DNA of 64,000 nt, from positions 33,066-97,065 of the forward strand of contig CAZAKI010000001.1 in NCBI GenBank assembly GCA_964485855.1, in the 5' to 3' direction. The notes below the pieces were generated by a model. It saw only the letters and a list, made by a program, of their open reading frames with translations. It made no database searches and was not told the DNA's origin. Of this stretch, positions 25,643 to 56,653 are shown one piece after another; the stretch's first letter is position 1; the number at the start of each line of letters is the position of its first letter. Origin of the DNA: an uncultured Syntrophomonadaceae bacterium (GTDB lineage Bacteria; Bacillota; Dethiobacteria; DTU022). The translations under genes were made by a program, and so were the position numbers.

Positions 25643-26304
25643 TAATTGTCTCTCCTCTCTCGCGCATAACGACATAGCGTCTCCAGGAAACAAGCTAGAC
25701 AGTCAGGTTTTCGGGCATGGCAAATTTTGCGACCGTGCCTGATCAGGCGGTGGTGAATTTCTGTCCATTCGCAAATAGGGATCACGGCCTGGAGCTGTTT
25801 TTCTACTTCAACAACATTATTACTGTCAGCAAGACCAAGCCTTCTACTAACTCTAAAAACATGGGTATCAACTGCAAGAGCCGGTTTTCCAAAAGCGCCG
25901 CTGATAATGACATTTGCCGTTTTTCGCCCCACTCCAGGTAAAGTCATTAATTGATCGAACTCATCTGGAACTTTACCGTCATACCGAGCAACAATAATCC
26001 TGCTTGCCGCTACCAGGTAACGACTTTTATTACGATAAAGACCGCACCCTTTCAAGTATGGCTCAAGATCCTGAGGTTCCAGGGAAGCTAATGCCTCGAT
26101 TGAGGGAATGGCTTGGAATAAACCAGCTGTTATCTTGTTCACCTGTTGATCAGTTGTTTGTGCTGATAAAACAGTGGCAACAAAAAGCTGGTACGGGTTT
26201 TGATAATTAAGGCTGGTTTTTGCATCCGGATAATAGCTTGCAAGTTTAAACCTAATTTGTTCAATTAAATCAGGATTTAAAATATAATTATGCTTTCTGG
26301 ACAT
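25642..26304 (-). CDS. nth: endonuclease III (DNA glycosylase/AP lyase)
   Basis: 220 aa. HhH-GPD motif LPGVGRKTA and C-terminal [4Fe-4S] Cys cluster C-x6-C-x2-C-x5-C. Confidence 0.9.
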   Translation of the reverse strand: MSRKHNYILNPDLIEQIRFKLASYYPDAKTSLNYQNPYQLFVATVLSAQTTDQQVNKITAGLFQAIPSIEALASLEPQDLEPYLKGCGLYRNKSRYLVAASRIIVARYDGKVPDEFDQLMTLPGVGRKTANVIISGAFGKPALAVDTHVFRVSRRLGLADSNNVVEVEKQLQAVIPICEWTEIHHRLIRHGRKICHARKPDCLACFLETLCRYARERRDN

Positions 26305-26368: not shown

Positions 26369-27568
26369 TTATGATCCGCTACGAATGATGCCTCTACTAT
26401 CTAGAACCTTAATTTCTTCTTCAGAATAATTAAGCTCAGTTAAGATTTGGCTGCTGTGTTCACCGTGGCGCGGTGGCTGCAGTCTTAAAGTACCTGGGTT
26501 TCCGGAAAACAGCAATGGAAAACCTGTTAACAACTCAACATGATCATTGGCCACCTTATTTTTTAGCCAAAAGTGATTTTCGATGCTGAGAGGATGTTCA
26601 ACCGATTCATCAAGTGAAAGGACCGGTTCGCAGCAGGCATCAACTTCCGCAAACGACTTGACCCACTGCTGCCTGGTTTTAGTCTTAAACAACTGTTGTA
26701 CTTCGATCAGCAATTTCTTCTGTTGTTGCGGATCGTATTGCTGTCCAATCCATTCCGGATGTTCAACCTTTTGACAAAAACGCTCCCAAAAAACGGGCTC
26801 CAAGGCCCCAAGACTGATGTATTTTCGATCTGCAGTCTGGTAAAGATTATAACAAGCATAAGCACCGGTGATCTGTCCCCGGTTTCGACCGGGAAGCCCT
26901 TTTCCATCAAACAATGTGGAAGCGGCATAGGCAAGCCAGGGCAAAAGCCCCCTGGTCATTGATATATCAACAAAACTTCCTTTTCCGCTCTTATCGCGAT
27001 CATGTAGGGCCATTAAGATCCCAATTACAGCCATTAACGAACCGGCGCCAATATCAGCGATTTGAACCGCGGGCATAACCGGTTCGCCACTTTCATTGGC
27101 GCTCAGTTCAAGAAGACCGGTAAGGGCAGTGTAATTGAGGTCGTGACCGGCTTTGTGCTTAAAACTGCCTAGCTGGCCGTACCCACTAATTGATGCGTAA
27201 ATCAGCCGGGAATTGACTCCTGCTAAAGAATCGTAATCTAAACCCAGTTTCTTCATCACGCCGGGACGAAAACCTTCAACTAAAACATCGGCCTGCTTTA
27301 TCAGCCGGTAAATTATCTCCCGTCCTTGTTCTGCTTTTAAGTTAACCGCAAGGCTGCGTTTATTCCGGTTAATCTGTCTGAAAAACGTTCCGCTACCTTC
27401 AATTTGGGAACCGATATGACGGGTTGGATCTCCATGATCTACATCTTCTATTTTAATCACGTCTGCCCCATAATCACCAAGCAGCATAGTGCATAATGGA
27501 CCTGGGAGCAAACGGGTCAGGTCTAAAACCAGCAAATCATTTAAGAGCGAAGGAACCATAAAGATCAC
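26369..27568 (-). CDS. family III CoA-transferase (CaiB/BaiF/Frc family)
   Basis: 399 aa starting LVLDLTRLLPGPLCTMLLGDYGADVIKIE, with a catalytic Asp region typical of family III. Confidence 0.8.
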   Translation of the reverse strand: MIFMVPSLLNDLLVLDLTRLLPGPLCTMLLGDYGADVIKIEDVDHGDPTRHIGSQIEGSGTFFRQINRNKRSLAVNLKAEQGREIIYRLIKQADVLVEGFRPGVMKKLGLDYDSLAGVNSRLIYASISGYGQLGSFKHKAGHDLNYTALTGLLELSANESGEPVMPAVQIADIGAGSLMAVIGILMALHDRDKSGKGSFVDISMTRGLLPWLAYAASTLFDGKGLPGRNRGQITGAYACYNLYQTADRKYISLGALEPVFWERFCQKVEHPEWIGQQYDPQQQKKLLIEVQQLFKTKTRQQWVKSFAEVDACCEPVLSLDESVEHPLSIENHFWLKNKVANDHVELLTGFPLLFSGNPGTLRLQPPRHGEHSSQILTELNYSEEEIKVLDSRGIIRSGS

Positions 27569-29169
27569 CGATGGGTGTAATGGGGAAGCAACATCGGACC
27601 GATCCTGTCGTTTGCAGCCCCAGTATCTTCCAATTCACGGTGGTAATGGTCGACATGCTGCAGGTTCAAGCCAACCGGTTTGTCAAGATCAAGGCTGACT
27701 TTGGCGGCATGTCGTCCAGAACGTCTTCCAAAAACAATAATATCAAGCAACGAATTGCCCATCAGGCGGTTAGTGCCGTGGATCCCACCTGCCGCTTCAC
27801 CAGCTACGTAAAGGTTCTCAACAGTACTGCGTCCGTTTTCATCGATTAGCAGGCCGCCGTTCTGGTAATGCAAGGTAGGATAAATCAGCATCGGTTCCTT
27901 ACGGATATCAACCCCAAACCGTTGAAACTGGCGCATCATGGCAGGCAGCTGGCGTTCGATAGTTCCCTCGCCGTGGATCATTTCAATTATTGGTGAATCA
28001 AGCCAGACCGCAATTAAGCCTGTTGGCAAGGGCACACCAAGATTTCTCTCGTGACATTCTCGCAAGATAGCCGATGACTCAACATCACGTGTTTCCAAGT
28101 GATAAACGAATTGTTCTCCATTAATATTAAGAGGTGTAGCCCCCAAACCCCTGGTTTTTTCTGTAACCAGAAGACCTAACAGTTGTGGCGGATAAGCACC
28201 GCCGGTTGGATGATACTGAATTGAGTCGGCATAAATCGTTTTTGCACCGGCCCGGTACCCAATGACCAATCCATCGGCTGTAGCCCCATAATGGTTGCTG
28301 GTTGGAAAACCGCGATAATGAAGCCTGCCGGAACCACCAGTTGCCAGAATTACTGTTTTTGCCCTTGCAACCAGATACTGTTCGGTTTCGACATTAAAAA
28401 GTACTGCGCCGGCTGCTCTTCCATTTTGATCGAGGATTACTTCAACAGCAGCACAGAATTCAACAATCGATATGCCTTTATTCAGCACCTCGTCACGTAG
28501 CGTGCGCATGATTTCCGCTCCGGTGTAATCGCGGGCAGCATGCATTCTCTTTCTTGACGTGCCTCCACCATGAATGGTGACCATCGTCCCATCATCTTTC
28601 TTATCAAACATGGTTCCCATGTTCTCGAGCCATTTAATCACCAGGGGAGCATCCATAACCAGGGCACGGGCCAGTTCGGGAACATTATCGAAGCGTCCGC
28701 CCCCGACTACATCCAGGTAGTGGATAGCCGGAGTATCATTTTCCTTATCGGCAGCCTGGATACCACCCTGCGCCATCATCGTATTGGCATCACCAAAACG
28801 CAATTTGGTAGCTATCATCACATTGGCCCCGGCTGCATGCGCCTCAAGGGCAGCGGAAGCACCGGCGCCCCCTCCGCCAATGATTAAAACGTCTACATCG
28901 TAGTCCGGTTCTGTTTCCAGATCCAGTTTTAGATCACGCAGGCGGCTCCATGATTCAAAAACATCAGCCATTTCAACAGGCATCCTGGCTCCCTTGCTGA
29001 CACCAACCTTGATCTCGCGGAAACCGTCGGGATTATAATCTGGGTGAAATTTTTCAAGCACTTCCTGTCGCTCTTCCTGAGTCATGCGTGGAAAATGAAC
29101 ACCAACCCGTGAGGCCCTGCTCTCTTCAACTTTTTTTACTAACTCACCAAGTTTACCGCTATATGCCAA
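27565..29169 (-). CDS. FAD flavoprotein of the succinate dehydrogenase/fumarate reductase (FrdA/SdhA/NadB) superfamily; non-covalent FAD type with an N-terminal extension of about 90 aa
   Basis: The GxGxxG motif (DVLIIGGGGAG) appears only after residue 90. Where the covalent-FAD His would be, the sequence is ANTMMAQGG, with no His. Fumarate-reductase-like active-site regions are present (HPTG, RxxE). Confidence 0.8.
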   Translation of the reverse strand: MAYSGKLGELVKKVEESRASRVGVHFPRMTQEERQEVLEKFHPDYNPDGFREIKVGVSKGARMPVEMADVFESWSRLRDLKLDLETEPDYDVDVLIIGGGGAGASAALEAHAAGANVMIATKLRFGDANTMMAQGGIQAADKENDTPAIHYLDVVGGGRFDNVPELARALVMDAPLVIKWLENMGTMFDKKDDGTMVTIHGGGTSRKRMHAARDYTGAEIMRTLRDEVLNKGISIVEFCAAVEVILDQNGRAAGAVLFNVETEQYLVARAKTVILATGGSGRLHYRGFPTSNHYGATADGLVIGYRAGAKTIYADSIQYHPTGGAYPPQLLGLLVTEKTRGLGATPLNINGEQFVYHLETRDVESSAILRECHERNLGVPLPTGLIAVWLDSPIIEMIHGEGTIERQLPAMMRQFQRFGVDIRKEPMLIYPTLHYQNGGLLIDENGRSTVENLYVAGEAAGGIHGTNRLMGNSLLDIIVFGRRSGRHAAKVSLDLDKPVGLNLQHVDHYHRELEDTGAANDRIGPMLLPHYTHR

Positions 29170-29196
29170 TGATCTAATACCTCCTCTCCAGGTTCG

Positions 29197-29895
29197 TTAT
29201 TCAATTTCTCTCTTGTTGTACATATCCTGCAGTGAATCGCGATCTGCAGAAACCAGGGCATCAATATCGGCGTTACATTCACCCGCTTCAATTGCCTTTG
29301 TGCGCTCTGCTAAAAATTGATCCGGCTTAGCTATGTAGCGGCTATATAGCCTCCTGGCAGTGAGGGCAGCGTTATAATGAACAATATTTGCCGGACAACG
29401 CGATACACAAAGACCGCACATCAGGCAGTCAAAAGATAAATCTGCTGCTTTCTCAAAATCACCACGCTGGATGTAAGCGATATACTGCATTACATCAATG
29501 TCTTGGGGGCAAACTTTCGTACAGGAACTACATCCCAGGCAGCGGTAAACTTCAGGATAAAGCTGGGCAAAATGGGCTACTGATGGTTTGATCTCATCTA
29601 AATCAAATGTTGCTTTACGGCCGGGGAAAAAGGGGATTTGAGCCAAATACATGCCATCTTCCACTTTTGTCTGGCAGGCCAGACCAACTTTTAACTCGTA
29701 ATCACCGGCCATTCGGTATACAGTCGCACATGCTCCGCAAAACCCGGCCCGACAGCCGCAACCACGCTTTAACTGGTATCCCGCATACTCCATGGAATCC
29801 ATGATGGTCAGGGATTCCGGAACTGTATATTTTTTACCCATAATATAAATATCAACCATCTTAATTTCGTCGCTCATATTATCCTCCTTTGGCAA
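29197..29895 (-). CDS. FrdB/SdhB-like iron-sulfur subunit ([2Fe-2S] plus two [4Fe-4S] motifs)
   Basis: C-x4-C-x2-C...C (CRAGFCGAC) plant-ferredoxin-like motif, then CLGCSSCTKVCP and CLMCGLCVSRCP. Confidence 0.8.
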   Translation of the reverse strand: MPKEDNMSDEIKMVDIYIMGKKYTVPESLTIMDSMEYAGYQLKRGCGCRAGFCGACATVYRMAGDYELKVGLACQTKVEDGMYLAQIPFFPGRKATFDLDEIKPSVAHFAQLYPEVYRCLGCSSCTKVCPQDIDVMQYIAYIQRGDFEKAADLSFDCLMCGLCVSRCPANIVHYNAALTARRLYSRYIAKPDQFLAERTKAIEAGECNADIDALVSADRDSLQDMYNKREIE

Positions 29896-29902
29896 AGCAG
29901 AC

Positions 29903-31249
29903 CTATTCGGCAGGTGGTGCAGGAATAAACCCTTTCTCCATTAACATTTGGGTCTGCTTCTGGGCTTTGCCGATCGATGTTTCGGCGAGCTTGTAGATTT
30001 CTTCTCTACTGAGCTTGATGCGGGCTACTCCCTCTTCAATTGCTTTCATCGCCGTCGCAGTTGCGACTCGGGGGAAGATATCCCACATGTCCATCGTCGG
30101 CAATATTTTCTCGGGATTCATACCGCCATCCGGAGCGCAGGCAGCCAGTTCCTCTGCAGCAGCTATACACATTGTATCAGTAATTTTTGTGGCTTGAACA
30201 TCCAAAACACCGCGGAAAATTGCCGGAAAGCCGAGCGAATTATTAACCTGGTTCGGAAAATCAGAACGCCCGGTTGATACTATTTTCGCCCCGGCTTCAA
30301 GAGCCTCCCAGGGCCAGATTTCTGGAATCGGGTTAGCGCAAGCGAAAACAATTGCATCCTTCGCCATGCTGGAGATCCATTCTTTTTTAATCGTGTCAGG
30401 ACCGGGAGTAGAAAGGGCAATGATTACATCGGCTCCGTTACAGGCATCAGCAGGTTGGCCAACCAGATTACCGGCGTTAGTAGTCTGACAAAGTTCCCAT
30501 TTGACCGGGTGTTTTTCCTTTAACTCCGTCCTACCCTTGTGTAATGTCCCCTTGCTGTCAAGCATGATGATCTTTGCCGGATCCACCCCGGCAGCAATAA
30601 TCAAACGGGCGGTGCAGATATTAGCTGCGCCGGCTCCCAGCATGACTACTTTTACTTCGCTCATCTTTTTACCAACTATTTTTAAAGCATTAATCAAACC
30701 GGCCAGATTAACCATGGCCGTTCCCTGCTGGTCATCATGCCAGACCGGAATGTGGCACTCTTCTTTCAGCCGATCCAGGATATCAAAACATTTCGGACTT
30801 GCAATGTCTTCAAGGTTAATCCCGCCAAAACAAGGTTGCAGCATTTTTACGAACTTAATGAACTCTTCAGGATCCTTAGTGTCAACACAAACTGGAAAAG
30901 CATCAACTCCACCCAGGTATTTAAAAAGTAGCGCTTTCCCCTCCATTACCGGCATGCTGGCTTCGGGACCGATATCACCCAATCCGAGAACTCTAGTTCC
31001 ATCTGATACAACCGCCAGCAAATTAGCCTTGTTGGTATATTTGTAAACATCTTCTTTATTCTTAGCTATCGCTTTGCAGGGTTCGGCTACACCCGGAGTG
31101 TACCAAATTGCAAAATCTTTAATATCCCGGACACAACACTTAAGATCCACTTGAATTTTTCCTTTATAAAAGGGATGCAATTTCATCGCATCCTCGGCCG
31201 GCTTTTTGGCTTTAGCCAGCAAATCTTCTTTATTCATGGTCATTATCAT
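29903..31249 (-). CDS. NAD(P)-dependent malic enzyme (short form, oxaloacetate-decarboxylating malate dehydrogenase)
   Basis: 448 aa. Malic enzyme N-terminal and NAD-binding domains (VMLGAGAAN). No phosphotransacetylase-like C-terminal domain. Confidence 0.85.
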   Translation of the reverse strand: MIMTMNKEDLLAKAKKPAEDAMKLHPFYKGKIQVDLKCCVRDIKDFAIWYTPGVAEPCKAIAKNKEDVYKYTNKANLLAVVSDGTRVLGLGDIGPEASMPVMEGKALLFKYLGGVDAFPVCVDTKDPEEFIKFVKMLQPCFGGINLEDIASPKCFDILDRLKEECHIPVWHDDQQGTAMVNLAGLINALKIVGKKMSEVKVVMLGAGAANICTARLIIAAGVDPAKIIMLDSKGTLHKGRTELKEKHPVKWELCQTTNAGNLVGQPADACNGADVIIALSTPGPDTIKKEWISSMAKDAIVFACANPIPEIWPWEALEAGAKIVSTGRSDFPNQVNNSLGFPAIFRGVLDVQATKITDTMCIAAAEELAACAPDGGMNPEKILPTMDMWDIFPRVATATAMKAIEEGVARIKLSREEIYKLAETSIGKAQKQTQMLMEKGFIPAPPAE

Positions 31250-31299
31250 TATCCCTGCCTTTATTATTTGGTGACTGCTTTTTTAGAGATCAGGTGCGG

Positions 31300-31851
31300 T
31301 TAGCGCGCATATTTTTTAGCTCCATCAGCATACAGATCATTGCCGTAGGCATCGTTGATCACAGTGGCCGGAAAATCTTTCACCTCGAGTTTGCGAATCG
31401 CTTCCGGCCCCAATTCCGGATAGGCAACAACTTCGCTTTTGATTATTCGTTTCGAGAGTAATGCTCCCGCCCCTCCCACTGCAGCCAAATAGACGCCCTT
31501 ATATTTCTTTAGCGCTTCTTTGACCGCCTGATTTCTTAAACCCTTACCGATACAGGCTTTCATCCCTTTTTCGAGCATCATTGGAGTATAAGCGTCCATC
31601 CGACCGCTGGTTGTCGGTCCGGCTGAACCAATTGCCTGTCCAGGTTTGGCCGGAGCCGGTCCCACGTAATAAATAAACTGTCCCTTTAAATCGATCGGCA
31701 GATCCTCATTTTTTTCCATCAACTCAATTAGTTTTTTATGCGCTGCGTCACGTGCCGTATATATGATTCCACTAATTAATACATTGTCTCCCGCTTTAAG
31801 TGCAAGCACATCCGCATCGCTCAGTGGTGCAGAAATTTTTTTCGGTTCCAT
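31300..31851 (-). CDS. class I (Fe-S) fumarate hydratase / tartrate dehydratase beta subunit
   Basis: 183 aa. Matches the Fe-S hydro-lyase beta (FumB/TtdB type) family. Confidence 0.85.
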   Translation of the reverse strand: MEPKKISAPLSDADVLALKAGDNVLISGIIYTARDAAHKKLIELMEKNEDLPIDLKGQFIYYVGPAPAKPGQAIGSAGPTTSGRMDAYTPMMLEKGMKACIGKGLRNQAVKEALKKYKGVYLAAVGGAGALLSKRIIKSEVVAYPELGPEAIRKLEVKDFPATVINDAYGNDLYADGAKKYAR

Positions 31852-31881
31852 TGTGCTGTCCTCCTTCCTGCTTTGATCAAA

Positions 31882-32727
31882 TTATATTTCTCGTTCCAGG
31901 TGGCGGCAGGCATGGCAATTAATATTGACTGCCGCTGCCATGCTGGCGATATGTGAAGGAAATGTTTCAATATGAACGGCAAGAGCAAAAGTCCTACCAC
32001 CGAAACCCTGGGGACCTACGCCTAGATCATTGATCTTGCTCAGTATTTTCGCTTCAAGCTCCGCGAAAACCGGATCGCCATGCTTTGAACCTATTTGGCG
32101 GAAAAGGGCTTTTTTGGCCATCACCGCAACCTTGTCAAAAGTACCACCTATGCCGACACCAACAACTATCGGGGGACAAGGATTCGGTCCGGCAGCTTTA
32201 ACGTGATTGACAACAAAGTCAATTACTCCGGCTTCACCATCCGACGGTTTCAGCATTTTTACCGTGCTCATATTTTCACTGCCGCCGCCTTTTGGGGCAA
32301 AAGAGATCTTCACTTTATCACCGGGTACAAGATCCGTATAAATTACCGCCGGGGTATTATCTCCGGTGTTTTTCCTCTGGTAGAGAGGATCATCGACAAT
32401 TGATTTGCGTAGATATCCTTCTTCATATCCTTTGCGCACACCAGCATGAATCGCTTCCTCAAGCGTTCCTCCCGTCAGATGCACTTCCTGTCCCCACTCG
32501 ACAAAAAAAACAGCAAACCCCGTATCCTGGCAGATCGGAATTTGCTCATTTCTGGCAATCTCAACGTTTTCAATCAGCTGTTTTAAGACTTCCTTACCTG
32601 TTGGCGATTCTTCAGTATCCATTGACTTTTTTAAGGCAGAAAAGACGTCTTCGCCTAAGTAGATGTTTGCTTTCTGGCACATCTCGGCCACATGATCACT
32701 AATAACAGACGCGGCAAGCTCCCGCAA
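31882..32727 (-). CDS. class I (Fe-S) fumarate hydratase / tartrate dehydratase alpha subunit
   Basis: Fe-S hydro-lyase alpha with Cys ligands. The start is set at TTG 32727 (MRELAASV...), 8 nt after GGGAGG. The GTG at 32736 overlaps the Shine-Dalgarno. Confidence 0.85.
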   Translation of the reverse strand: MRELAASVISDHVAEMCQKANIYLGEDVFSALKKSMDTEESPTGKEVLKQLIENVEIARNEQIPICQDTGFAVFFVEWGQEVHLTGGTLEEAIHAGVRKGYEEGYLRKSIVDDPLYQRKNTGDNTPAVIYTDLVPGDKVKISFAPKGGGSENMSTVKMLKPSDGEAGVIDFVVNHVKAAGPNPCPPIVVGVGIGGTFDKVAVMAKKALFRQIGSKHGDPVFAELEAKILSKINDLGVGPQGFGGRTFALAVHIETFPSHIASMAAAVNINCHACRHLEREI

Positions 32728-32856
32728 ACCAGACACCTCCCATGAAATTTCTGCAGTTGTACATTTATATTTCTTTTTCGGCCTGCATGGGGAAATTCCT
32801 GCCGCTAATTATAAAATTTATTATAATTCTAAAATTTATCATGGAAGGCTTGCCGG

Positions 32857-33744
32857 CTATTTTGCTACTTTAGCCATTAACTTTTTGTAATCCCGATCAA
32901 CTTCTGCCTGCAAGTGTTCTAATTTAGCTTGATCCATGTTCTTAAAACGTTTTTGTCTCCCCAAATATTCACTGAGTGGAACGCTTTTAATGTCAGCCTG
33001 AACGGTCATCCTCCAGGTGGTGCCATTATCTACTTCAAAAAGAGGGAAGAAACCGGTTGTAACCGCTAGCCTTGATATTTCAACGGTTTCTGATGATTCA
33101 GTCCCCCAGCCAGGCGGGCAGGGCGATAATATATGAATAAAGCGAAAGCCCTTTATCGCTTTGGCTTTCTTCAGTTTTGCATCCAAATCTTCAGGATAAG
33201 CGATCGTTGCCGTTGCTATATACGGTACACTATGCGCCGCCATGATCTGCATGATGTCTTTCTTTTCTCCCTCTTTGAAGAGTGGATAGGGCGCGGTGTT
33301 TGTCCTCGCACCAAAAGGTGTCGCCGAACTTGTTTGCATACCTGTATTCATATAAGCTTCGTTATCATAACAGACAAAAATGAAGTCTTCGTTTCTCTGG
33401 GCTGCTCCAGACAAGGCTTGAAGGCCGATATCAAAAGTACCGCCATCTCCGGCCAGCACGACAACTGTAGTCTCATGGTAACCTTTTGCCTCCAAGCCCC
33501 TTTTAAGCCCGCTCCCTACAGAACCGGCGCTGGGAAACGGACAGTGTAGGACAGGGCATTTTAAGGCATTTAAAGGAGGCATCCCGGCAATAATACTCCA
33601 GCAGGATGCAGTTAGCGCAACAGCAATATTGGATCCAAGAGCCTTGGTTAGAAAACGGACGGCGAGCGCAGCACCGCAGCCCGGACAGGCATTATGCCCG
33701 GAATAAACCATTTCCTGTTGATGGACTAATGCTTCCGGTTTCAT
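32857..33744 (-). CDS. 2-oxoacid:ferredoxin oxidoreductase beta subunit (TPP-binding)
   Basis: 295 aa. N-terminal CPGCG and TPP motif GDGG...N (VVVLAGDGGTFDIG...YDNEAYMNTG). Confidence 0.85.
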   Translation of the reverse strand: MKPEALVHQQEMVYSGHNACPGCGAALAVRFLTKALGSNIAVALTASCWSIIAGMPPLNALKCPVLHCPFPSAGSVGSGLKRGLEAKGYHETTVVVLAGDGGTFDIGLQALSGAAQRNEDFIFVCYDNEAYMNTGMQTSSATPFGARTNTAPYPLFKEGEKKDIMQIMAAHSVPYIATATIAYPEDLDAKLKKAKAIKGFRFIHILSPCPPGWGTESSETVEISRLAVTTGFFPLFEVDNGTTWRMTVQADIKSVPLSEYLGRQKRFKNMDQAKLEHLQAEVDRDYKKLMAKVAK

Positions 33745-34889
33745 TTTAGATGATCACCCCAGACTTCAAGATACTGGTCATTTGTCTCTGCGTTGCCTGC
33801 ACTGAGCATGTTCAAAAGCATATCTCCGGTTAAATCGATGCCGCCGGCCAAGATCAGATCCCTGATTACAGGCTTTACCGGCAACTGGTAAAGAGCTTGA
33901 CAGAGTTCCTGGGCAAATACTCCGCCGCTCCCGATTGAATAGTTGCGATCAAGAACAATAATCTCTTCCAGCTCATAAGCTTTGACGATCGCACGCAGTC
34001 TTTCGGCGGGAAAAGGTCTGAACATCCGCAGCTTGATTAGCCCGATATTTTCCAGGTCTGGCAAAGACCACTTTACCGTTTCTGCTAATGCCCCAACCGC
34101 CATAATAGCTTTTCTGGCACCGGCAGGAATATATTCCTCCACATCTTGGTAACTACGGCCGAAAACTTTTTTAAACTGTTTATTGATCTCGGCAAAAACT
34201 TCCGGCGCAAGATGCATCGCATCGTCGCGATTTTTTACCAACTTATGGACTGTTTCACCGGTTGACAATCCGTGCAAATTTTCCGGATATCCCGGAACAA
34301 CCTGGGCTTTAAAATTTGGCGGTCCGATTAAACTTTGCACCAAAGATTTTTCTGCAATATCGACCACCTCATAGGTATGAGAAATATAGAATCCGTCAAA
34401 TACCACCATGCAGGGCAAAAGCAATTTTTCAGCCAGCGAAAATGCCTGTAAAACAGTATCAAAGACTTCCTGGGCATTGGCACAATAAATCTGAAGCCAT
34501 CCTGTGTCCCGCTGGCTGAGACTGTCGCCCTGATCCGGATCGAGACACCAGGGGGCACCGATAGCCCGGTTCACGTTAACCATAACGATTGGCAGTCTTG
34601 CTCCGCTGGACCAATGAATCATTTCATGCATGTAGGCCAGACCATGTGAAGCAGTAGCGGTAAAGACCCTGGCTCCAGAAGCTGACGCACCGGTACAAAA
34701 GGCAAGAGCTGAATATTCAGACTCAACACTGACAAATTCGCCTCCCAACTCTCCCCTGGCATCAAAATCAGCTAAAGTTTCAACAATTGCCGTTTGCGGT
34801 GTAATCGGATAAGCAGCGATCAGATCAACACCAACTCTTTGAACGGCTGTTGCGGCGGCCTGGCTGCCACTAATCATCTCAAAAGTCAT
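33741..34889 (-). CDS. 2-oxoacid:ferredoxin oxidoreductase alpha subunit
   Basis: 382 aa POR/KOR alpha-type protein. Its coding sequence overlaps the beta gene by 4 nt and the upstream gene by 11 nt. Confidence 0.85.
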   Translation of the reverse strand: MTFEMISGSQAAATAVQRVGVDLIAAYPITPQTAIVETLADFDARGELGGEFVSVESEYSALAFCTGASASGARVFTATASHGLAYMHEMIHWSSGARLPIVMVNVNRAIGAPWCLDPDQGDSLSQRDTGWLQIYCANAQEVFDTVLQAFSLAEKLLLPCMVVFDGFYISHTYEVVDIAEKSLVQSLIGPPNFKAQVVPGYPENLHGLSTGETVHKLVKNRDDAMHLAPEVFAEINKQFKKVFGRSYQDVEEYIPAGARKAIMAVGALAETVKWSLPDLENIGLIKLRMFRPFPAERLRAIVKAYELEEIIVLDRNYSIGSGGVFAQELCQALYQLPVKPVIRDLILAGGIDLTGDMLLNMLSAGNAETNDQYLEVWGDHLK

Positions 34890-36435
34890 TCGCCGGCTCC
34901 TCCTTCATTTCCAAAGCTCTGGCCGGGCATTCGTTGACGCAGATGCCACAGCCCTTGCAATAGTCCAGGTTAAACTCAAAACGACCGTTTGCTATGACAA
35001 CAGCTAAATCAGGACAGTATAGATAACAGATACCGCATGAATTACAGGTTCCGCAACCAAGGCAGCGTTCTGCTTCTGCCACCGGGTTGTCGTCCCGCTG
35101 TTTTAAATCAAGATTATTTCTTGCAGCCAGATTTAAATATTCAAAGGTAACTGGATCACCATAATTGGCCTGGAAACTCAAATCTTTTAATTTTTCATCA
35201 ACATTTTTAATCGCCTCCGCCGCACAGTGTCCAGCTTTAATTGCTTCTGCCACTGTTGCCGGGCCACTGACTAAATCTCCTCCGGCAAAAATATTTTGAC
35301 TACTATTGATAGTACCCAATCCTGCTAAATCAGGAACCTGGCCAAGAGCCATAATTACGGATTGACAATCTTTAATAAAACTTCTATCCCGATCGACAAA
35401 CAAACCTTGTTTTTCAGTCCGACAGTAATCAATCCTTACACCAATTATTCTTTCTTCGGTTTTAATAATCTCACGTGGTAAAGCATTAAAAATAAACTCT
35501 ACGCCTTCCTGCTCTGCCAGATCAATTTCATGTTGATCGGCTGGCATCTCAGGTCTGCTGCGCCTGTAGATTAAAACAACATGTTGCACTCCGGCAATGC
35601 GTAGTGCACTACGTGCACTGTCGATTGCTGCATTACCACCGCCAATGACAACAACTGTTTTGCCAACCTCTGGGATCCTACTTTGATTGTATTGGCAGAG
35701 AAAGTCAAGAGCATTATAAACATAGCGACTTTCCGCACCCGGAATATTGGATTTGCGTGCAAGCCAGGCTCCAGTAGCCAGAAAAACCTGTTCATGCTGT
35801 TTGTATAGATCATCGAGCTGAAAATCTTTGCCCAAGGCGCTATTGGTTTTAAAAATAATGCCTTCCGCTTTCAAGATGGCCAGCTCTTGTCTTAGAATAT
35901 CACGTGGTAACCTGTATTCCGGGATGCCAAGCGCAAGCATACCACCGATTACTGCTGATCTTTCGTAAATGGTAACCCCATAGCCGGCTGAGGAGAGATA
36001 ATAGGCACAGCTTAAACCAGCCGGGCCGGAGCCGACAATAGCGATCTCCTTCTTTACTTCTTTGTTTCTTTCTGGCGGCTGATAATGATCAAGTCTCCAC
36101 AAACCAATTGCCTTTTCCACTGCTCTGATATTAATTCCCTGATCCAACTGAGTCCTGTTACAGTTTTGCTCACAGGGGTTAAAACAAACATAACCGGTAA
36201 TTGCCGGGAAAGGATTATAGCGGCTCATAATCTCCCAGGCTTCTGCCCATTTTTTTTGTTTTACCGCTTCAAGCCAAGCCGGTATTTCACCGTCCAAAAG
36301 ACAGCCCTGGCGACATGGTGATAACCGATTCATTTTGAAGGGAGTTAAAAAACGCCACTCCCCGGTCTTGTTGACCGTGATAGCTTTAGATCCACCGGCA
36401 AACAATGTTGGTACCTGGCTAGCGATCAACTGCAA
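34879..36435 (-). CDS. fusion protein: a GltD-like NAD(P)H-dependent FAD/Fe-S oxidoreductase module joined to an OFOR delta-type 2x[4Fe-4S] ferredoxin domain
   Basis: N-terminal Cys-rich helical ferredoxin-like segment (CRQGC...CFNPCEQNC). Two dinucleotide folds (IAIVGSGPAGLSCAYYL and VVVIGGGNAAIDSARSA). C-terminal CxxCxxCxxxCP motifs (CKGCGICVNECP). TTG start with an AAGGAGG Shine-Dalgarno. It overlaps the gamma gene by 17 nt. Confidence 0.75.
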   Translation of the reverse strand: MQLIASQVPTLFAGGSKAITVNKTGEWRFLTPFKMNRLSPCRQGCLLDGEIPAWLEAVKQKKWAEAWEIMSRYNPFPAITGYVCFNPCEQNCNRTQLDQGINIRAVEKAIGLWRLDHYQPPERNKEVKKEIAIVGSGPAGLSCAYYLSSAGYGVTIYERSAVIGGMLALGIPEYRLPRDILRQELAILKAEGIIFKTNSALGKDFQLDDLYKQHEQVFLATGAWLARKSNIPGAESRYVYNALDFLCQYNQSRIPEVGKTVVVIGGGNAAIDSARSALRIAGVQHVVLIYRRSRPEMPADQHEIDLAEQEGVEFIFNALPREIIKTEERIIGVRIDYCRTEKQGLFVDRDRSFIKDCQSVIMALGQVPDLAGLGTINSSQNIFAGGDLVSGPATVAEAIKAGHCAAEAIKNVDEKLKDLSFQANYGDPVTFEYLNLAARNNLDLKQRDDNPVAEAERCLGCGTCNSCGICYLYCPDLAVVIANGRFEFNLDYCKGCGICVNECPARALEMKEEPANDF

Positions 36436-37015
36436 GGTACGCCACCTCCTTTACACTAGCAAATCCCTCGGTGGTCGCATTAATATTAGCATCAAGGCTT
36501 ACTGAAACTCTTTTCTTAATCGATGCCGTCAAATGTTCCAGGTTGACCAATCCACTTACTTTAGCCATAGCCCCAAGCATCACCGTATTAACCATTGGAA
36601 AACTACCGATGGCCAGATTATTTTTCAAGGCAATTTCTTTAGCCTCAATTTGAAATACTTTATACTGGCAGAGATTAGTCCTATTTTTTTCGAATAGTTT
36701 CCGCCAATCTTCCCCGGCATTAATAATCAGATTTCCTTCCTCCTGCAGGCCAGAAAAAAGAGTCTGTCTGCTAATTGTTGCATCAAACACTACCACATAA
36801 TCAGGATGATAAATTCTGCTACGGGGCATCAGCCGCTCCGGACTAATTCTAATGAAAGCAGTTACCGGCGCACCGCGACGCTCAGCGCCAAAAAGGGAAA
36901 AAGCCCGGGCATATTTACCGCTTAAAAATACAGCTTCGGCAAAAATCGATGCGGCTACAACAATCCCCTGCCCCCCCCTGCCGTGTAACCTAAATTCGGT
37001 TATTCCTCTGCGCAT
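36419..37015 (-). CDS. 2-oxoacid:ferredoxin oxidoreductase gamma subunit
   Basis: 198 aa POR/KOR/VOR gamma-type protein with a GGGAGG Shine-Dalgarno. It is the first gene of a gamma/delta/alpha/beta order. Confidence 0.85.
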   Translation of the reverse strand: MRRGITEFRLHGRGGQGIVVAASIFAEAVFLSGKYARAFSLFGAERRGAPVTAFIRISPERLMPRSRIYHPDYVVVFDATISRQTLFSGLQEEGNLIINAGEDWRKLFEKNRTNLCQYKVFQIEAKEIALKNNLAIGSFPMVNTVMLGAMAKVSGLVNLEHLTASIKKRVSVSLDANINATTEGFASVKEVAYLAVDR

Positions 37016-37030
37016 TTACATTCCTCCCTA

Positions 37031-37071
37031 CAATATTTTGCAAGATGAAATAGTTTGCTTGCAAAATATTG
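37031..37071. promoter_or_regulatory. perfect 14-bp inverted repeat, CAATATTTTGCAAG-N13-CTTGCAAAATATTG, in the 5' leader just upstream of the gamma-subunit Shine-Dalgarno
   Basis: Direct reading. A third partial TTTTGCAA copy lies near 37239..37248, overlapping the -12 region of the sigma-54 promoter. Confidence 0.4.
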
Positions 37072-37242
37072 CATGGTTCTTTTTTAAAGTCTTTTCTGTC
37101 CCGCTTTTATTAACATCTAAAGCGTCTCTGCTCTAAGGCCTAAAACTCTCAATAACCTTCCTCAAGCTCTTTAGCCGCCATCCTGGCAAATATTTAACGA
37201 TCAGCATCTCTCCTTATCTCAATTGTTAGCTACAAAATTATT

Positions 37243-37259
37243 TTGCAATTTTCATGCCA
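37243..37259 (-). promoter_or_regulatory. sigma-54 (-24/-12) promoter, TGGCATGAAAATTGCAA, driving the oxidoreductase/TCA-branch operon
   Basis: On the minus strand, the GG and GC dinucleotides are spaced exactly as in the TGGCACG-N4-TTGCW consensus. The site lies 17 nt downstream of the stop of the adjacent sigma-54 activator gene, with a roughly 215-nt leader to the first structural gene. Confidence 0.55.
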
Positions 37260-37275
37260 TAAAAAAAGAGAAATT

Positions 37276-38676
37276 TTAAATTAGGTTTTGTTGGTGAAGT
37301 TTGTTGTAAAGATTGCGGATTGAAATATCGAGGATACGTGCTGCTTCGGCCTTGTTGCCTTTGGCTTCCAGCAAGGCTTGACGCAAAATACCTTTTTCCC
37401 AGCTTTTATGCAGATCTTTTAAACTGCCTAGCGGTTTCTCACTTTCTCCTGTTTCAGTTTTTCCTGTGATCAGGTCGGGCATCATTAAGTGAGATTCAGT
37501 GATCATATTTTCTGTCCGATCTAAGTTAATCACCGCGCGAGCCATTACATTTTGTAACTCCCTGATGTTACCCGGCCAGTCATAGGCTTTCAGTCGTTTA
37601 AATACTGTAGGGGCAATTTCCACTGAATTTAGGCCGTATTCCAGGGCGCAGCGGGAGGCAAAATAATTAGCCAGTAGGGGGATATCACTGAGCATCTCTT
37701 TCAGTGAAGGTAAATAAATCGGAAATACATTGAGACGATAATAAAGATCCTGTCGAAAATAATTATTTTCGACCAGCTTTTCCAGATTGGCATTCGTCGC
37801 CGCTATAATTCGCACATCGATCTGCCGGCTACGTGACTCGCCTACCCTGATTATTTCACCCTCTTGAAGTGCCCTCAGTAATTTGGCTTGAGCTTCCGGA
37901 CCCATCGCACCGATTTCATCTAAAAACAAAGTACCATCAGTAGCCTCTTCAAAATATCCCTTACGCCCTCCTTTTTTAGCACCCGTAAAAGCCCCATCAC
38001 CGTAACCAAAAAGTTCGCTTTCCAGAAGAGTGTCAGTCAGTGATGCGCAGTTAACCCTGATAAACGGTTGATCAGCCCTTTCACTGTCATGATGAATGGC
38101 ATGAGCAAAAAGTTCTTTACCAGTACCACACTCACCTCGTAATAATATGGATACCGGGGTTGAGGCAGCCTGCCTTGCTCGCTCTATAGCTTTGCGCAGT
38201 GACATGCTGTCACCGATAATGTCTTTAAAAGTATAACGAGATTCCAATTTCCGGACCAGCCGGCGAGTGCGTTCCAACTCTTCCATCACCAGCCTCAACT
38301 CAGAAATATCGTGAATTACTCCGACACTACCCTTGATCTCTTTATTTAAGAATAAGGGGGCACAGCTTACGATTACTTCTCTGCGCAGTGGTCCTACTTT
38401 CATTCGAACTCCGGTAATCGCTTTTCCACTTTCCAGGACTTTTAAGTGGACACTTTCTCCTTCTGCAATATCAACAGTTGCCGGTTTATTTAACACTTGT
38501 TCTCTGGTCATTCCCGTAATTCTGGTGTAAGCGCTATTAATCATCATTCCGTTCCCTTTTTCATCAACTATAGAGACCGCATCGGACAGTGAATCAATAA
38601 TGGCCTGAAGAAGAACCATAGAGTCTTTTCCATCATTTAATAACCTAAATTGACCCTTAGAAAGATTACTGATCAT
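37276..38676 (-). CDS. sigma-54-dependent transcriptional activator (PAS sensor + AAA+ sigma-54 interaction domain + Fis-type HTH)
   Basis: 466 aa. GAFTGA-type motif (GDGAFTGA), Walker A GECGTGKE, and a C-terminal HTH ([18 protein letters not shown]). Confidence 0.9.
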
Positions 38677-38688: not shown

Positions 38689-40731
<2,043 letters not shown>

Positions 40732-41555: not shown

Positions 41556-42602
41556 ATGATATTGGTAACCGGCGCAGCAGGACATCTGGGTAACGTTCTG
41601 GTTCGAGAGCTCTTAGCAGCAGATGAAAAAGTTCGAGCCCTTGTTCACCCGGGCGAACCTCTTCATTCTTTACAGGGAATGCTGATTGAGGTTATTGTCG
41701 GCGACATCCTTGATCGTGATTTATTAAATCGGGCCATGTGGGGTATTGATACAGTTTTTCATTTAGCGGGGATCATTGCCATCAGACCCGGGATGGAAGA
41801 TCTGATGACCAAGGTTAATGTTGAAGGTGCCCGAAACGTGGCCGAAGCTGCTTTAAACAACCATGTTCGTCGCCTGGTTCATGTCAGCTCGGTTCATGCC
41901 TTTCGACGTGAACCGCTGGGTACTGTAATTGATGAACAGACACCCCTTGCTCTTGATAGCCCGATGGGTACCTATGATCGAACAAAAGCGGAAGGCACCA
42001 AAACAATCCTTGATTTTATCGCTAAAGGTCTTGATGCGGTTATTGTCTGTCCCAGCGGGATCATCGGTCTTCACGATTATCGGGGATCGGAAATTGGCAA
42101 AGCCCTGCTTTCTTTTGCCACCACTCGTCCTACCCTTCTGGTTGATGGTGCATACGATTTTGTTGATGTCCGTGATGTTGCCCGCGGTTTAATCCAAGCA
42201 AAAGATAAGGGTAAAAAGGGTGAAATCTATATATTGTCAGGCTCACAGGCATCGGTTGAAAACCTGTGCCAGATGGCCCAGCAGGCCAGCGGCACTAAAA
42301 GTGTGATGTATAAAATACCGATTCACTTTGCCATTCTAGTGCTCGGTTTATTGCAGGGACTGATTAGTTGGTTAAAAATTAAATCCAGATATACAGTTTA
42401 TTCCCTGCAAACCCTGCTTGGTAATTCTGTTTTTAGTTCACTCAAGGCCAAAAACGAGCTGGGGTACCAGGCAAGGCCGTTAAGCGAAGCAATTGCCGAT
42501 TATATCAATTGGAGCTACCAAAGATTTAAACTTGCAAGAACTAATACTAAGACAGTAAACAAATGCGTACCGTCCAAGAAAAATCCACCTTCGGTTGCTT
42601 AA
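41556..42602 (+). CDS. NAD(P)-dependent epimerase/dehydratase-family (extended SDR) oxidoreductase
   Basis: 348 aa with GAAGHLG Rossmann motif and YxxxK. Its ATG overlaps the tetR stop, so the two are likely co-transcribed. Confidence 0.75.
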
Positions 42603-42988
42603 AACCGACTGATTATATAACTGCAAATTTTTTCCAGTGAGTCCCCGGGTGTAAATATCTGGTCGGCGAAACCACCGGCAATCAATGCTTGCGAATCTTC
42701 TTCGGGAATAATCCCACCCACAACCAATGGGATCTCTTTCATCCCCATCTGCCCCAGAAGTTGCTTAATTTTAGGCACCAGGGTCATGTGGGCACCGGAT
42801 AAAATGCTTAAGCCAACAAGATCAACATCTTCCTGCATTGCTGCTTCTGCTACCTGTTCGGGTGTTTGGTGTAATCCGGTATAAATAACTTCCATTCCGG
42901 CGTCACGTAAGGCCCTTGCAACCACTCTCGCCCCACGATCGTGACCGTCAAGCCCAGGTTTTGCCAGTAAGACTCTTATTTTCTTCAT
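42599..42988 (-). CDS. icmB: B12-binding small subunit of a split adenosylcobalamin-dependent acyl-CoA mutase (IcmB-like)
   Basis: DxHxxG cobalamin-binding motif ([12 protein letters not shown]). About 129 aa if the start is ATG 42988 after GGAGG. Confidence 0.8.
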
Positions 42989-43109
42989 GACCAACCTCCG
43001 GGATATCATCCAACTAGTTAGACCGATTCAGCAAAAATGCCCCGGGTAGATCTCAAGTAAAGTAAGATTATTGAGATCAGCAACGCGGTTCCCAGTAAAT
43101 AATATAAAA

Positions 43110-44774: not shown

Positions 44775-44789
44775 ATGATCACCCGCTTT

Positions 44790-45734: not shown

Positions 45735-45768
45735 TTTTTCACCCCATAGTTAAAAATAATCGTCGCTT

Positions 45769-46296
45769 TTAGTATTCGATTCCAGGACAGCAGCCGGCTC
45801 CCTGTTCGTAATGATGTTTGATTGCCAACACTTCGCTGACCAGATCAGCCCTTTTTACCAGTTCCGCAGAAGCATTACGTCCTGTGAGGACAACGGTAAC
45901 CCCATCGGGCTTTTCTTCGAGCAACTGCAGTAAATCATTTTCGCTAATCAGCTTATAATCAACAGCAACATTGATCTCATCCAGCACCACCAGGTCATAT
46001 TCACCGCTTAAAATTGCCTTCCGGGCTTTTGCAAATCCTGCCTGAGCCAGTTCAATATCAACCGGATCAGGATTATCACGATTAACAAAGTCATCGCGCC
46101 CGGCACGCACCAAGGTCAAATTGGGAAGCTGAGCTGTAGCTAAAAATTCTCCATAATCTCGACCTTTCATAAAGTGAATCATGTAAACCCTAAAACCGTG
46201 CCCTAAAGCCCTGATCGCCTGTCCAACAGCAGCCGTTGTTTTCCCTTTTCCGTCTCCGGTAAATACCATGATCAGGCCAGGCTTAGCATTATCCAT
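45769..46296 (-). CDS. cobO: ATP:cob(I)alamin adenosyltransferase (CobO/BtuR/CobA type)
   Basis: 175 aa with the P-loop-like TGDGKGKTTAA. Confidence 0.85.
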   Translation of the reverse strand: MDNAKPGLIMVFTGDGKGKTTAAVGQAIRALGHGFRVYMIHFMKGRDYGEFLATAQLPNLTLVRAGRDDFVNRDNPDPVDIELAQAGFAKARKAILSGEYDLVVLDEINVAVDYKLISENDLLQLLEEKPDGVTVVLTGRNASAELVKRADLVSEVLAIKHHYEQGAGCCPGIEY

Positions 46297-46392
46297 CAGT
46301 TATAAACACCTCTTTTGCCGATCTGAAGTAATCTACACCAGTAGCAAATAACTTGCCTCTTCTCTAGTTTATCCGTACAGCAATCGCGGGTT

Positions 46393-47532: not shown

Positions 47533-47570
47533 CGGCTATTCCTCCCACTTTAGTTATTGTCTTCAAGCCT

Positions 47571-48692: not shown

Positions 48693-48713
48693 AGATGCCA
48701 GCTCCTTCTTCCT

Positions 48714-51208: not shown

Positions 51209-51256
51209 TTCGATCATCCTCTCTACTCGCTCTCACAGCTCAAAATCTTAATATCG

Positions 51257-56596: not shown

Positions 56597-56653
56597 CAAT
56601 CATCATCCTCCATCTGTGTGAGATTCTGATCATAATTTATCTAAAACTCCGGA

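Follow-up and report, generated by a model that had tools for sequence, protein, structure and literature searches.

Among the closest described systems, the bkd operon of Bacillus subtilis (BkdR/SigL) has a comparable layout driven by an enhancer-binding protein (EBP), with a leucine dehydrogenase-type (LeuDH-type) enzyme followed by decarboxylation of the 2-oxoacid. Among the sigma-54 activators of Clostridiales, one-component proteins of the PAS type dominate; they typically govern amino-acid catabolism and control amino-acid oxidation operons such as tyrB-iorAB-butK of the ZypR regulon, in which an aminotransferase is combined with a 2-oxoacid:ferredoxin oxidoreductase (OFOR) (PMC6615313). 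Another relevant system is the "succinate operon" of the succinate producer Pseudoclostridium thermosuccinogenes, made of fumarase, FlxABCD-HdrABC and a novel soluble fumarate reductase, for which a coupling to ferredoxin reduction through Flx-Hdr has been proposed (PMC7282089). Here we describe a locus at positions 26369 to 38676 of a 64,000-nucleotide stretch of DNA (the window, hereafter) from an uncultured Syntrophomonadaceae bacterium of the Dethiobacteria (contig CAZAKI010000001.1). Its parts are all of known kinds; what is new is that a soluble fumarate reductase devoid of Flx-Hdr is kept, in Dethiobacteria, beside an OFOR of the Por/Vor type fused to an NfnB-like flavoprotein.

The locus is most likely a composite of two metabolic modules held adjacent in Dethiobacteria (soda-lake and alkaline-habitat Firmicutes). 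Module 1 consists of a PAS/sigma-54 activator, a sigma-54 promoter, a leader with dyad repeats and the OFOR genes gamma, GltD/NfnB-delta, alpha and beta, while module 2 comprises fumAB, a malic enzyme gene and frdBA. We give about even chances to a reading of this gene content in which module 1 oxidises 2-oxoacids or amino acids beside a reductive succinate branch, module 2, that would serve as an electron sink. The racemase-like CoA-transferase-fold gene that ends the locus probably belongs to module 2, and its pathway membership is uncertain.

As in the ZypR regulon, a PAS-type EBP and a -24/-12 promoter would drive the first part of the locus (PMC6615313), and the relatives of the window share with bkd and tyrB-iorAB-butK a gene order in which an aminotransferase or LeuDH-type gene comes first and is followed by an enzyme decarboxylating the 2-oxoacid oxidatively to an acyl-CoA. 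Unlike bkd and tyrB-iorAB-butK, the locus encodes a four-subunit OFOR with a fused NfnB/GltD-like delta subunit instead of a lipoamide dehydrogenase complex or IorAB, has no ptb/buk genes and carries its dyads, a putative enhancer, downstream of the promoter; in the window copy, moreover, the dehydrogenase gene has been lost or was never present. With the P. thermosuccinogenes operon the window shares the reductase family, whose members adjoin fumarase and often malic enzyme and for which the proposed direction is from fumarate to succinate. It differs in having no FlxABCD-HdrABC-MvhD, the redox neighbour being the OFOR with its NfnB-like subunit, as well as in a sigma-H-like promoter of its own and in the racemase-like CoA-transferase-fold gene at its end.

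Layout of the Locus

Eleven open reading frames (ORFs), all on the minus strand, lie between ligA (38689-40698) and nth (25642-26304), in the order activator, OFOR gamma, GltD/NfnB-delta, alpha, beta, fumarase alpha, fumarase beta, malic enzyme, FeS subunit, flavoprotein and CoA_transf_3. Domain identities were obtained from Pfam and NCBIfam scans, and the gene starts of fumA, malic enzyme and frdB follow the ENA gene calls. At the protein level the window agrees with an ENA metagenome contig to 99-100%. Soda-lake metagenome-assembled genomes (MAGs), labelled Syntrophomonadaceae or Bacillota, are the nearest genome relatives; the last gene has homologues under the label Dethiobacteria. Related loci are cited below by their L numbers.

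An earlier note, made from the letters of the window, had described ten co-oriented genes with short or overlapping junctions downstream of a PAS sigma-54 activator, and the orientation and positions of the eleven ORFs bear this out. The junctions from OFOR gamma to the last gene measure -17, -11, -4, +129, +30, +56, +25, +27 and -4 nt, so that the description holds for most of them but not for the junction of OFOR beta with fumA, at 129 nt the sole long one. With the note, the ten genes could be read as a single sigma-54 operon connecting 2-oxoglutarate, succinyl-CoA, succinate, fumarate, malate and pyruvate, either for the breakdown of glutamate-derived 2-oxoglutarate or for its reductive synthesis. 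All the enzyme classes needed for such a branch could indeed be read into the ten genes, and in one relative (L090) a TAXI-TRAP transporter, a class that can take dicarboxylates or 2-oxoglutarate, sits at the boundary between the modules. We nevertheless regard this explanation as very unlikely, in view of the OFOR clade, the dehydrogenases of related loci, the region upstream of fumA and the type of fumarate reductase.

Clade of the OFOR and Its Fused Flavoprotein

OFOR gamma (36419-37015, minus strand; PF01558) scored 172 bits with TIGR02175 (PorC_KorC, the pyruvate/2-ketoisovalerate family; cut-off 81) and 36 bits with the Kor/Oor model (cut-off 216). The alpha subunit (POR_N; 33741-34889, minus strand) gave 342 bits with PorA_Arch (cut-off 550) and 324 with VorA (cut-off 646), as against 123 bits (cut-off 411) with a Kor/Oor model and 88 bits with 2-oxoglutarate synthase alpha (cut-off 579). 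Its closest PDB chain is that of a four-subunit pyruvate:ferredoxin oxidoreductase (PFOR), 9bt4_B, at 218 bits, the 2-oxoglutarate synthase alpha chain reaching 74 bits. For the beta subunit (thiamine pyrophosphate domain; 32857-33744, minus strand) the values were 363 bits with the VorB-type model (cut-off 405), 339 with PorB (cut-off 405) and 46 with KorB (cut-off 364). Alpha, beta and gamma all fell under the curated Kor/Oor cut-offs; gamma and delta exceeded the subfamily cut-offs of the PorABCD/VorABCD clade, in which alpha and beta had their best matches, and neither alpha nor beta reached an equivalog cut-off that names a substrate. By every sequence criterion, then, the OFOR falls in the Por/Vor clade and is not a 2-oxoglutarate enzyme, and its substrate would be a 2-oxoacid of the pyruvate or branched-chain type. 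The contrast between 36-123 bits with Kor/Oor-type models and 172-363 bits with Por/Vor speaks against the 2-oxoglutarate end of the earlier scheme.

Four OFOR genes had been listed in the note. The gamma, alpha and beta domains are as described, but the "delta" gene (34879-36435, minus strand; Fer4_20, Pyr_redox_2 and Fer4) encodes a 518-aa fusion of a GltD/NfnB-like module for NAD(P)H, FAD and 2x[4Fe-4S] with the 2x[4Fe-4S] ferredoxin domain of OFOR delta. The latter domain matched TIGR02179 (PorD) over residues 450-513 with 62.3 bits (cut-off 60.05), and the protein scored 427 bits with NF009410, under the cut-off of 516. Residues 19-412 have as closest solved chains 9n5u (an entry named NfnA), 9bov and the large subunit of NfnI, 5jca_L, and NfnB-type chains, with two [4Fe-4S] clusters, FAD and an NAD(P)H site, align with this part at 200-248 bits. 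Unlike NfnAB, the GltD-delta protein has no NfnA partner and is fused at its C-terminus to the OFOR delta ferredoxin domain. The NADH-dependent phenylglyoxylate dehydrogenase PadEFGHI (NF045762-66) likewise combines an OFOR of the Por clade with an extra FAD/NAD-binding component, through which the oxidation of its 2-oxoacid is linked to a pyridine nucleotide. In the window, by contrast, the flavoprotein is fused to delta, not a separate subunit, and the context is one of amino acids and C4 acids, not phenylacetate; the gamma, delta, alpha and beta proteins scored 134, 48, 220 and 221 bits with PadE, PadF, PadG and PadI, far under the Pad cut-offs.

A GltD-like gene 33% identical to the GltD-delta of the window was also seen in an Anaerolineales MAG (L062:3635-5122), within an Hdr-MvhD-FrdBA cluster. 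It suggests that GltD-type NAD(P)H modules were recruited to soluble fumarate reductase more than once.

Probable Sigma-54 Control of the OFOR Unit

The activator gene (37276-38676, minus strand) encodes a sigma-54 EBP of 466 aa with PAS, AAA+ and Fis-type helix-turn-helix domains (PF00989; PF00158, 228 bits; PF02954 (HTH_8), 37 bits) and with the GAFTGA loop in its translation. Its top NCBIfam match is PrdR, at 410 bits, under the cut-off of 795. Orthologues with 55-71% identity lead the same locus in L016, L091 and L094-L096. As a sigma-54 promoter we counted GG-N10-GC within TGGCAC-N5-TTGCW, upstream of the regulated gene and kept in orthologous loci. The sequence TGGCATGAAAATTGCA (37244-37259, minus strand), 16 nt past the stop codon of the activator gene, has these properties, and an equivalent -24/-12 element lies directly 3' of the activator orthologue in all nine related loci for which that region is available; by chance, about 2.2 matches with one mismatch would be expected per window. 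The near-consensus promoter announced in the earlier note is therefore retained, and the sequence and its conservation make sigma-54 control of the OFOR unit credible. The same note had found such control unusual for genes of this kind, which is not so: PAS-type activators acting with sigma-54 are the norm for catabolic operons in Clostridia and, since they dominate in Clostridiales, their presence here is ordinary for the phylum (PMC6615313).

The promoter is followed by a leader of 228 nt with conserved dyad repeats. Two TGCAA-N4-TTGCA dyads (37029-37073, minus strand), with centres 31 bp apart, are found just ahead of the OFOR gamma ribosome-binding site. They are kept in L001, L009, L010, L013-L016, L091 and L094, always between the sigma-54 promoter and a ribosome-binding site, and every lineage has two to three of them, 100-190 nt 3' of the sigma-54 promoter or past the dehydrogenase gene, with centres spaced by 31-32 bp where two were measured (window, L010, L016). 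Their place is 3' of the dehydrogenase gene and ahead of OFOR gamma in L010 and L015; in L013 two copies of the dehydrogenase gene flank them. It is the dyad sequence itself that is retained among the loci, with no covariation; the leader as a whole showed no unusual structure (z = -0.95), and an Rfam scan of 25.5-39 kb for riboswitches, T-boxes and the like gave no match at E <= 1. From this pattern the dyads may be protein-binding sites, candidates for a downstream enhancer or operator used by the activator. A degenerate sigma-54 promoter was also considered for them and was ruled out, as no GG-N10-GC register fits.

Amino-Acid Enzymes at Related Loci

In nine of the 11 related loci with the region upstream of the OFOR available, the first gene of the sigma-54 unit is of the LeuDH type, placed between the sigma-54 promoter and OFOR gamma (L009, L010, L013-L015, Dethiobacter alkaliphilus L091 and L094-L096); L013 has two copies in tandem (L013:1-1920), the first being truncated by the locus end. 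The product is a protein of about 350 aa of the ELFV family that matched, among solved structures, leucine dehydrogenase at 381 bits, tryptophan dehydrogenase at 306 and phenylalanine dehydrogenase at 201. It has GPALGG at the position where glutamate dehydrogenases have the Lys that binds the gamma-carboxylate. Because this dehydrogenase adjoins the OFOR, the OFOR substrates in the relatives are likely hydrophobic 2-oxoacids, and an in-cis dehydrogenase of the leucine type instead of the glutamate type is a further argument against a route from glutamate through 2-oxoglutarate.

In the Dethiobacter group a class I/II aminotransferase gene and an EamA exporter gene follow OFOR beta (L091, L094 and L095), L096 having EamA only. 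The window and L016 have no amino-acid dehydrogenase gene at this position, and no remnant of one was detected by blastx/tblastn in the 260-nt region between activator and OFOR or in the rest of the window. Because the gene is absent here, the organism of the window must use pyruvate or 2-oxoacids made elsewhere. In two loci of the Dethiobacter group (L094:4009-5382 and L095:2875-4215), a gene of the tryptophanase/tyrosine phenol-lyase family (Beta_elim_lyase) lies some genes ahead of the activator and could provide pyruvate in cis.

A Promoter-Like Element ahead of fumA

The 129-nt gap before fumA contains a promoter-like region (32776-32831, minus strand) conserved in 13/13 loci. In the window it is made of an AT-rich block with the inverted repeat AATTATAA-N6-TTATAATT (32828-32807), followed by GCAGGAATT (32802-32794), 11 nt and GCCGAAA (32782-32776), the last two motifs resembling the -35 and -10 of sigma-H. 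Across the 13 loci the pattern is an AT-rich block with a TTATAAT-like end, an invariant GCAGGAWTT, 11-12 nt and xxxGAA(T/A/G). The spacing rule for sigma-H -35 and -10 elements was used in the comparison. With the sigma-H consensus RNAGGAWWW / RNNGAATWW (PMC8510167) as reference, the sigma factor of module 2 would be sigma-H-like. The element does not depend on the upstream neighbour, be it OFOR beta, the TAXI-TRAP transporter (L090), EamA (Dethiobacter group) or gatB (L019), and it is kept in L019 and L026, which have module 2 and no OFOR.

No second sigma-54 promoter was found ahead of fumA in the window, and related loci gave only a weak match, in L014. In other lineages the boundary between the modules is occupied by transporters, an aminotransferase or a terminator, with a strong intrinsic terminator between the modules in L014 and L015; in the window, none was predicted between OFOR beta and fumA or past the last gene. 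A promoter-like element of its own in all 13 loci, together with the insertions at the boundary, argues against the single sigma-54 operon of ten genes. The locus may serve as a caution for annotation, in that a row of genes resembling the tricarboxylic acid cycle behind a sigma-54 promoter need not be one operon or a linear pathway.

Enzymes of Module 2 and Direction of the Reductase

The steps linking succinate, fumarate, malate and pyruvate, as proposed in the earlier note, are encoded by genuine fumarase, malic enzyme and soluble Frd-type genes. The fumarase alpha gene (31882-32727, minus strand; TTG start, the ORF reaching 32736) scored 408 bits with NF004885 (cut-off 276) and the beta gene (31300-31851, minus strand) 276 bits with NF005310 (cut-off 238). 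With the L-tartrate dehydratase models the same proteins gave 188 bits (TtdA; cut-off 365) and 89 bits (TtdB; cut-off 264), so that the pair stands above the cut-offs of a two-subunit class I (Fe-S) fumarase and below those of tartrate dehydratase. It is followed by a short-form NAD(P) malic enzyme with no PTA domain (29903-31243, minus strand; PF00390 and PF03949), in place of which L094 has an Ldh/Mdh-family gene.

The reductase consists of an FeS subunit (29197-29877, minus strand) with a [2Fe-2S] motif and two CxxCxxCxxxCP motifs (2x[4Fe-4S]), paired with the flavoprotein in all related loci, and of a soluble flavoprotein of 534 aa (27565-29169, minus strand; FAD_binding_2, PF00890). The flavoprotein has no membrane anchor and no Succ_DH_flav_C domain (no PF02910 match), and it scored under the classical SdhA/FrdA cut-offs (TIGR01812, 260 bits, cut-off 567; TfrA, 330 bits, cut-off 718). 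Residues H320, T336, E337, R340, R361, H434 and R468 correspond to H242, T254, E255, R258, R286, H354 and R399 of E. coli SdhA, and these dicarboxylate-site and catalytic residues are invariant in the family alignment. His45 of E. coli SdhA, which carries the covalent FAD, aligns with Asn129, and Asn occupies this position in all 101 homologues with a matchable motif (19 others gave no motif match). Non-covalent FAD lowers the flavin potential, and such enzymes reduce fumarate and oxidise succinate poorly. Since Asn replaces the FAD-linking His, the reductive direction is favoured, and from these residues FrdBA probably works from fumarate to succinate. Anaerobic succinate oxidation needs a membrane-bound succinate dehydrogenase (SDH) and reverse electron transport (PMC8892533; PMC10308238). 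A soluble reductase with non-covalent FAD and no membrane anchor is unsuited to that task, which argues against the oxidative direction that had been considered for the 2-oxoglutarate branch.

Members of the family in C. estertheticum, Acetoanaerobium, Marinisporobacter, Sporomusa and gut Clostridia share 59-69% identity with the FrdBA pair of the window. Neighbourhoods were counted in 54 species-level genome loci with enough upstream flank: the reductase lies 3' of HdrB/C-HdrA-MvhD-FeS-FeS-NAD-binding genes in 46 of them and is accompanied by a class I or class II-like fumarase in 47.

One relative of the reductase does stand in a 2-oxoglutarate branch. In an uncultured Bacillota (L025:4100-11312), a reductase of the same family (FrdBA 58-63% identical) with Hdr/MvhD upstream is followed by KorA, KorB, KorC and SucCD, which by sequence is a complete gene row from fumarate through succinate and succinyl-CoA to 2-oxoglutarate. 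That the reductase family can serve such a branch is a point in favour of the earlier interpretation. Unlike L025, the window has a Por/Vor-type OFOR upstream of FrdBA and no succinyl-CoA synthetase, and the true version of the branch manages with no family III protein; the KorA of L025 scored 574 bits, above the cut-off, and provides a positive control for the Kor models.

Two further features of the family were observed. The flavoprotein has an N-terminal extension of about 90 residues (residues 1-90; 28900-29169, minus strand) with no Pfam match, conserved in Flx-Hdr-linked and OFOR-linked members with invariant K12, V14, E15, R18, R21, R28, M29 and P43-D44, which may be a docking element. 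In 29 Flx-Hdr-linked loci of gut and rumen Clostridia (within L030-L088), the "fumarase" has a class II fold and is 37-40% identical to Acetoanaerobium FumC; this neighbour could be an aspartate ammonia-lyase giving fumarate from aspartate.

Relation between the Two Modules

All 12 loci with a GltD-delta OFOR have fumAB, a malic enzyme or malate dehydrogenase gene and frdBA downstream, down to 43% GltD-delta identity, and no Flx-Hdr genes were found in these loci (10-kb flanks) or in the window. The two modules could still be functionally unrelated neighbours, an inducible operon for 2-oxoacids or amino acids next to a housekeeping or sporulation-phase anaplerotic succinate branch, which would share by chance a conserved chromosomal slot running from ligA/gatAB to nth-lonC-dnaE. 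Each module has its own conserved promoter element, in L019 and L026 module 2 occupies this chromosomal position with no OFOR, and where neither module is present the CoA-transferase-fold gene is still found beside nth. In addition, the module 2 proteins of the soda-lake relatives are 79-90% identical, as against 53-76% for module 1, the last gene and nth, and this contrast suggests that selection acts differently on the two modules. A chance association is difficult to reconcile with the adjacency in 12/12 loci, as well as with the lack of Flx-Hdr in the 10-kb flanks here when it lies beside the reductase in 46/54 genome loci, and we hold this explanation to be unlikely.

The gene content rather favours, at about even odds as stated above, a reading in which module 2 takes up the electrons of module 1. 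Module 1 would carry out the inducible oxidative decarboxylation of a pyruvate- or branched-chain-type 2-oxoacid to an acyl-CoA, and the fused NfnB-like flavoprotein would let electrons exit as NAD(P)H, not solely via free ferredoxin. In most relatives the 2-oxoacid would be supplied in cis by the LeuDH-type enzyme, and in the Dethiobacter group also by the aminotransferase. Module 2 would work reductively, pyruvate, CO2 and NAD(P)H giving malate, then fumarate and finally succinate, the last step being catalysed by the soluble, non-covalent-FAD fumarate reductase. One amino acid deaminated and decarboxylated, or two pyruvates oxidised, would release 4 [H], and the conversion of pyruvate and CO2 to succinate would use 4 [H]. 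Because the two amounts are equal, module 2 would be an electron sink for module 1; the direction of flux and the redox coupling of the modules are inferred from the gene content. The replacement of malic enzyme by an Mdh-family gene in L094 fits the making of malate for fumarate reduction better than the feeding of pyruvate to the OFOR.

Several observations weigh against this reading. The window has no amino-acid dehydrogenase or aminotransferase at the locus and no detectable remnant, and the scores do not separate Por from Vor (alpha, 342 bits with PorA and 324 with VorA; beta, 339 bits with PorB and 363 with the VorB-type model). Amino acids and peptides are reportedly not fermented by the cultured relative D. 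alkaliphilus Z-1002 (PMC10376724). Occurring by itself in L019 and L026, module 2 has no strict need of module 1. As for the separation of the two units, the -10 of the fumA element deviates in the lineage of the window (GAAA or GAAG, not GAAT) and a lone match to the sigma-H pattern is not above chance; sigma-54 read-through into fumA is possible, because no terminator follows OFOR beta in the window.

Some of these points would agree with a dismutation of malate and fumarate, or of pyruvate, in which amino acids have no special role. Malic enzyme would turn malate into pyruvate, which the OFOR, acting as a pyruvate:NAD(P)/ferredoxin oxidoreductase, would convert to acetyl-CoA; the four electrons would reduce two fumarate to succinate, and the last gene product would move CoA from acetyl-CoA to succinate. 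The genes of the window alone close this stoichiometry (3 malate giving 2 succinate, acetate and 2 CO2), the alpha subunit is closest to a solved four-subunit PFOR, the window and L016 have no amino-acid dehydrogenase and no terminator blocks read-through. This scheme is less easily extended to the relatives, where a LeuDH-type gene heads the sigma-54 unit in 9/11 loci and where the malate dehydrogenase-family gene of L094 would not feed the OFOR; nor is there a dicarboxylate transporter at the window locus. We consider it rather unlikely.

If the two modules are coupled, the connection could be more intimate than the use of module 2 as an electron sink. GltD-delta might replace Flx-Hdr and wire the OFOR directly to the fumarate reductase, making a 2-oxoacid:fumarate oxidoreductase, possibly with flavin-based bifurcation or confurcation involving NAD(P)(H), in a Stickland-like fermentation of amino acids. 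We regard this as quite doubtful. If true, this system would couple the highly exergonic reduction of fumarate to 2-oxoacid/acyl-CoA chemistry, and the C4 branch, running reductively, would form the acceptor arm of the Stickland-like fermentation. Electron bifurcation by the soluble clostridial fumarate reductase with Flx-Hdr has so far been proposed, not demonstrated, and the loci of Dethiobacteria offer a natural variant with no Flx-Hdr, an adjacent GltD-delta OFOR with its NAD(P)H module and a cultured member, Dethiobacter alkaliphilus. They are tractable for identifying the electron donor of this reductase family and for asking if the oxidation of amino acids or pyruvate is balanced by internally made succinate in alkaliphilic anaerobes.

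The Last Gene of the Locus

The last gene (26369-27568, minus strand) encodes a family III CoA-transferase-fold protein (PF02515, 349 bits) that resembles alpha-methylacyl-CoA racemases, its top PDB matches (191 bits). The motifs AGHDLNY, ADIGAGS and GALEPVFW correspond to AGHD(L/I)NY, (A/G)D(I/F)G(A/G)GS and GA(L/I)EP(V/Q)F(W/Y) of the MCR/AMACR racemases, where they hold the catalytic His, Asp and Glu; they are also retained in the L096 orthologue, and GHDxNY is present in 117/120 homologues. The scores with transferase models were 184 bits for succinyl-CoA:mesaconate transferase (cut-off 700) and 183 for succinate-glutarate transferase (cut-off 750). Succinate-hydroxymethylglutarate CoA-transferase aligns over the full length with 178 bits, and the protein is about 40 residues longer than the racemases. 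Racemase and transferase are not separable here because no curated family cut-off is reached. The racemase-like character is one more point against a 2-oxoglutarate branch, in which this protein had to act on succinate or succinyl-CoA.

The gene lies 3' of frdA in the lineage of the window and in L096 (42% identity), and L094 has a CoA_transf_3 gene at the same position, truncated by the locus end. It is absent after frdA in L090 and L026, and it is found beside nth-lonC in L092/L093, which have neither module. In the Dethiobacter MAG L026, the position 3' of frdA is taken by a gene for an acetyl-CoA synthetase-like AMP-forming ligase (L026:12080-14038).

Neighbouring Genes

A minus-strand cluster at 42599-49895 contains genes for a thiolase, two acyl-CoA dehydrogenases, an ATP:corrinoid adenosyltransferase, MeaB and a two-subunit B12 acyl-CoA mutase (554 and 136 aa). 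In the large subunit of the mutase, RQFSGFG and AQK give the Phe/Gln signature that marks isobutyryl-CoA mutase, in place of the Tyr/Arg of methylmalonyl-CoA mutase, which suggests an interconversion of isobutyryl- and butyryl-CoA leading into beta-oxidation. Such a cluster would fit valine-derived isobutyryl-CoA of the kind that a Vor-type OFOR would supply. A role of the mutase in a succinate-to-propionate or methylmalonyl-CoA step was ruled out by the same signature.

The cluster, 4 kb from the locus, calls to mind the oxidative second half of a methylmalonyl-CoA-type pathway, as in Pelotomaculum, in which the CoA-transferase would free succinate that is then taken to fumarate, malate, pyruvate and acetyl-CoA. 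The gene set has some resemblance to the mmc operon (regulator, two-subunit fumarase, CoA-dependent steps, OFOR), and D. alkaliphilus strains use succinate and propionate as donors with Fe(III) or thiosulfate. With a mutase of the isobutyryl-CoA type, a soluble non-covalent-FAD reductase where membrane-bound SDH and reverse electron transport are needed, and no succinyl-CoA synthetase, epimerase or transcarboxylase in the annotated parts of the window, we find this pathway extremely improbable.

Further along, a long co-oriented row that includes purD and 49931-51217 (minus strand) contains a gene for a membrane H+/Na+-pyrophosphatase of 660 aa (54617-56599, minus strand); a look-up of the 49931-51217 protein for context gave no match. 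On the other side, the locus is embedded in a housekeeping backbone (window 1-26304; L089, L090, L092) made of nth, a LonC-like protease gene, trmL, an AI-2E transporter gene, dnaE and pyk, continuing with rpsB-tsf-pyrH-frr-uppS-cdsA-dxr-rseP-ispG and then nusA-infB. The spore genes ytrH and ytrI are found near the locus in relatives, and the organism is for this reason probably a spore former.

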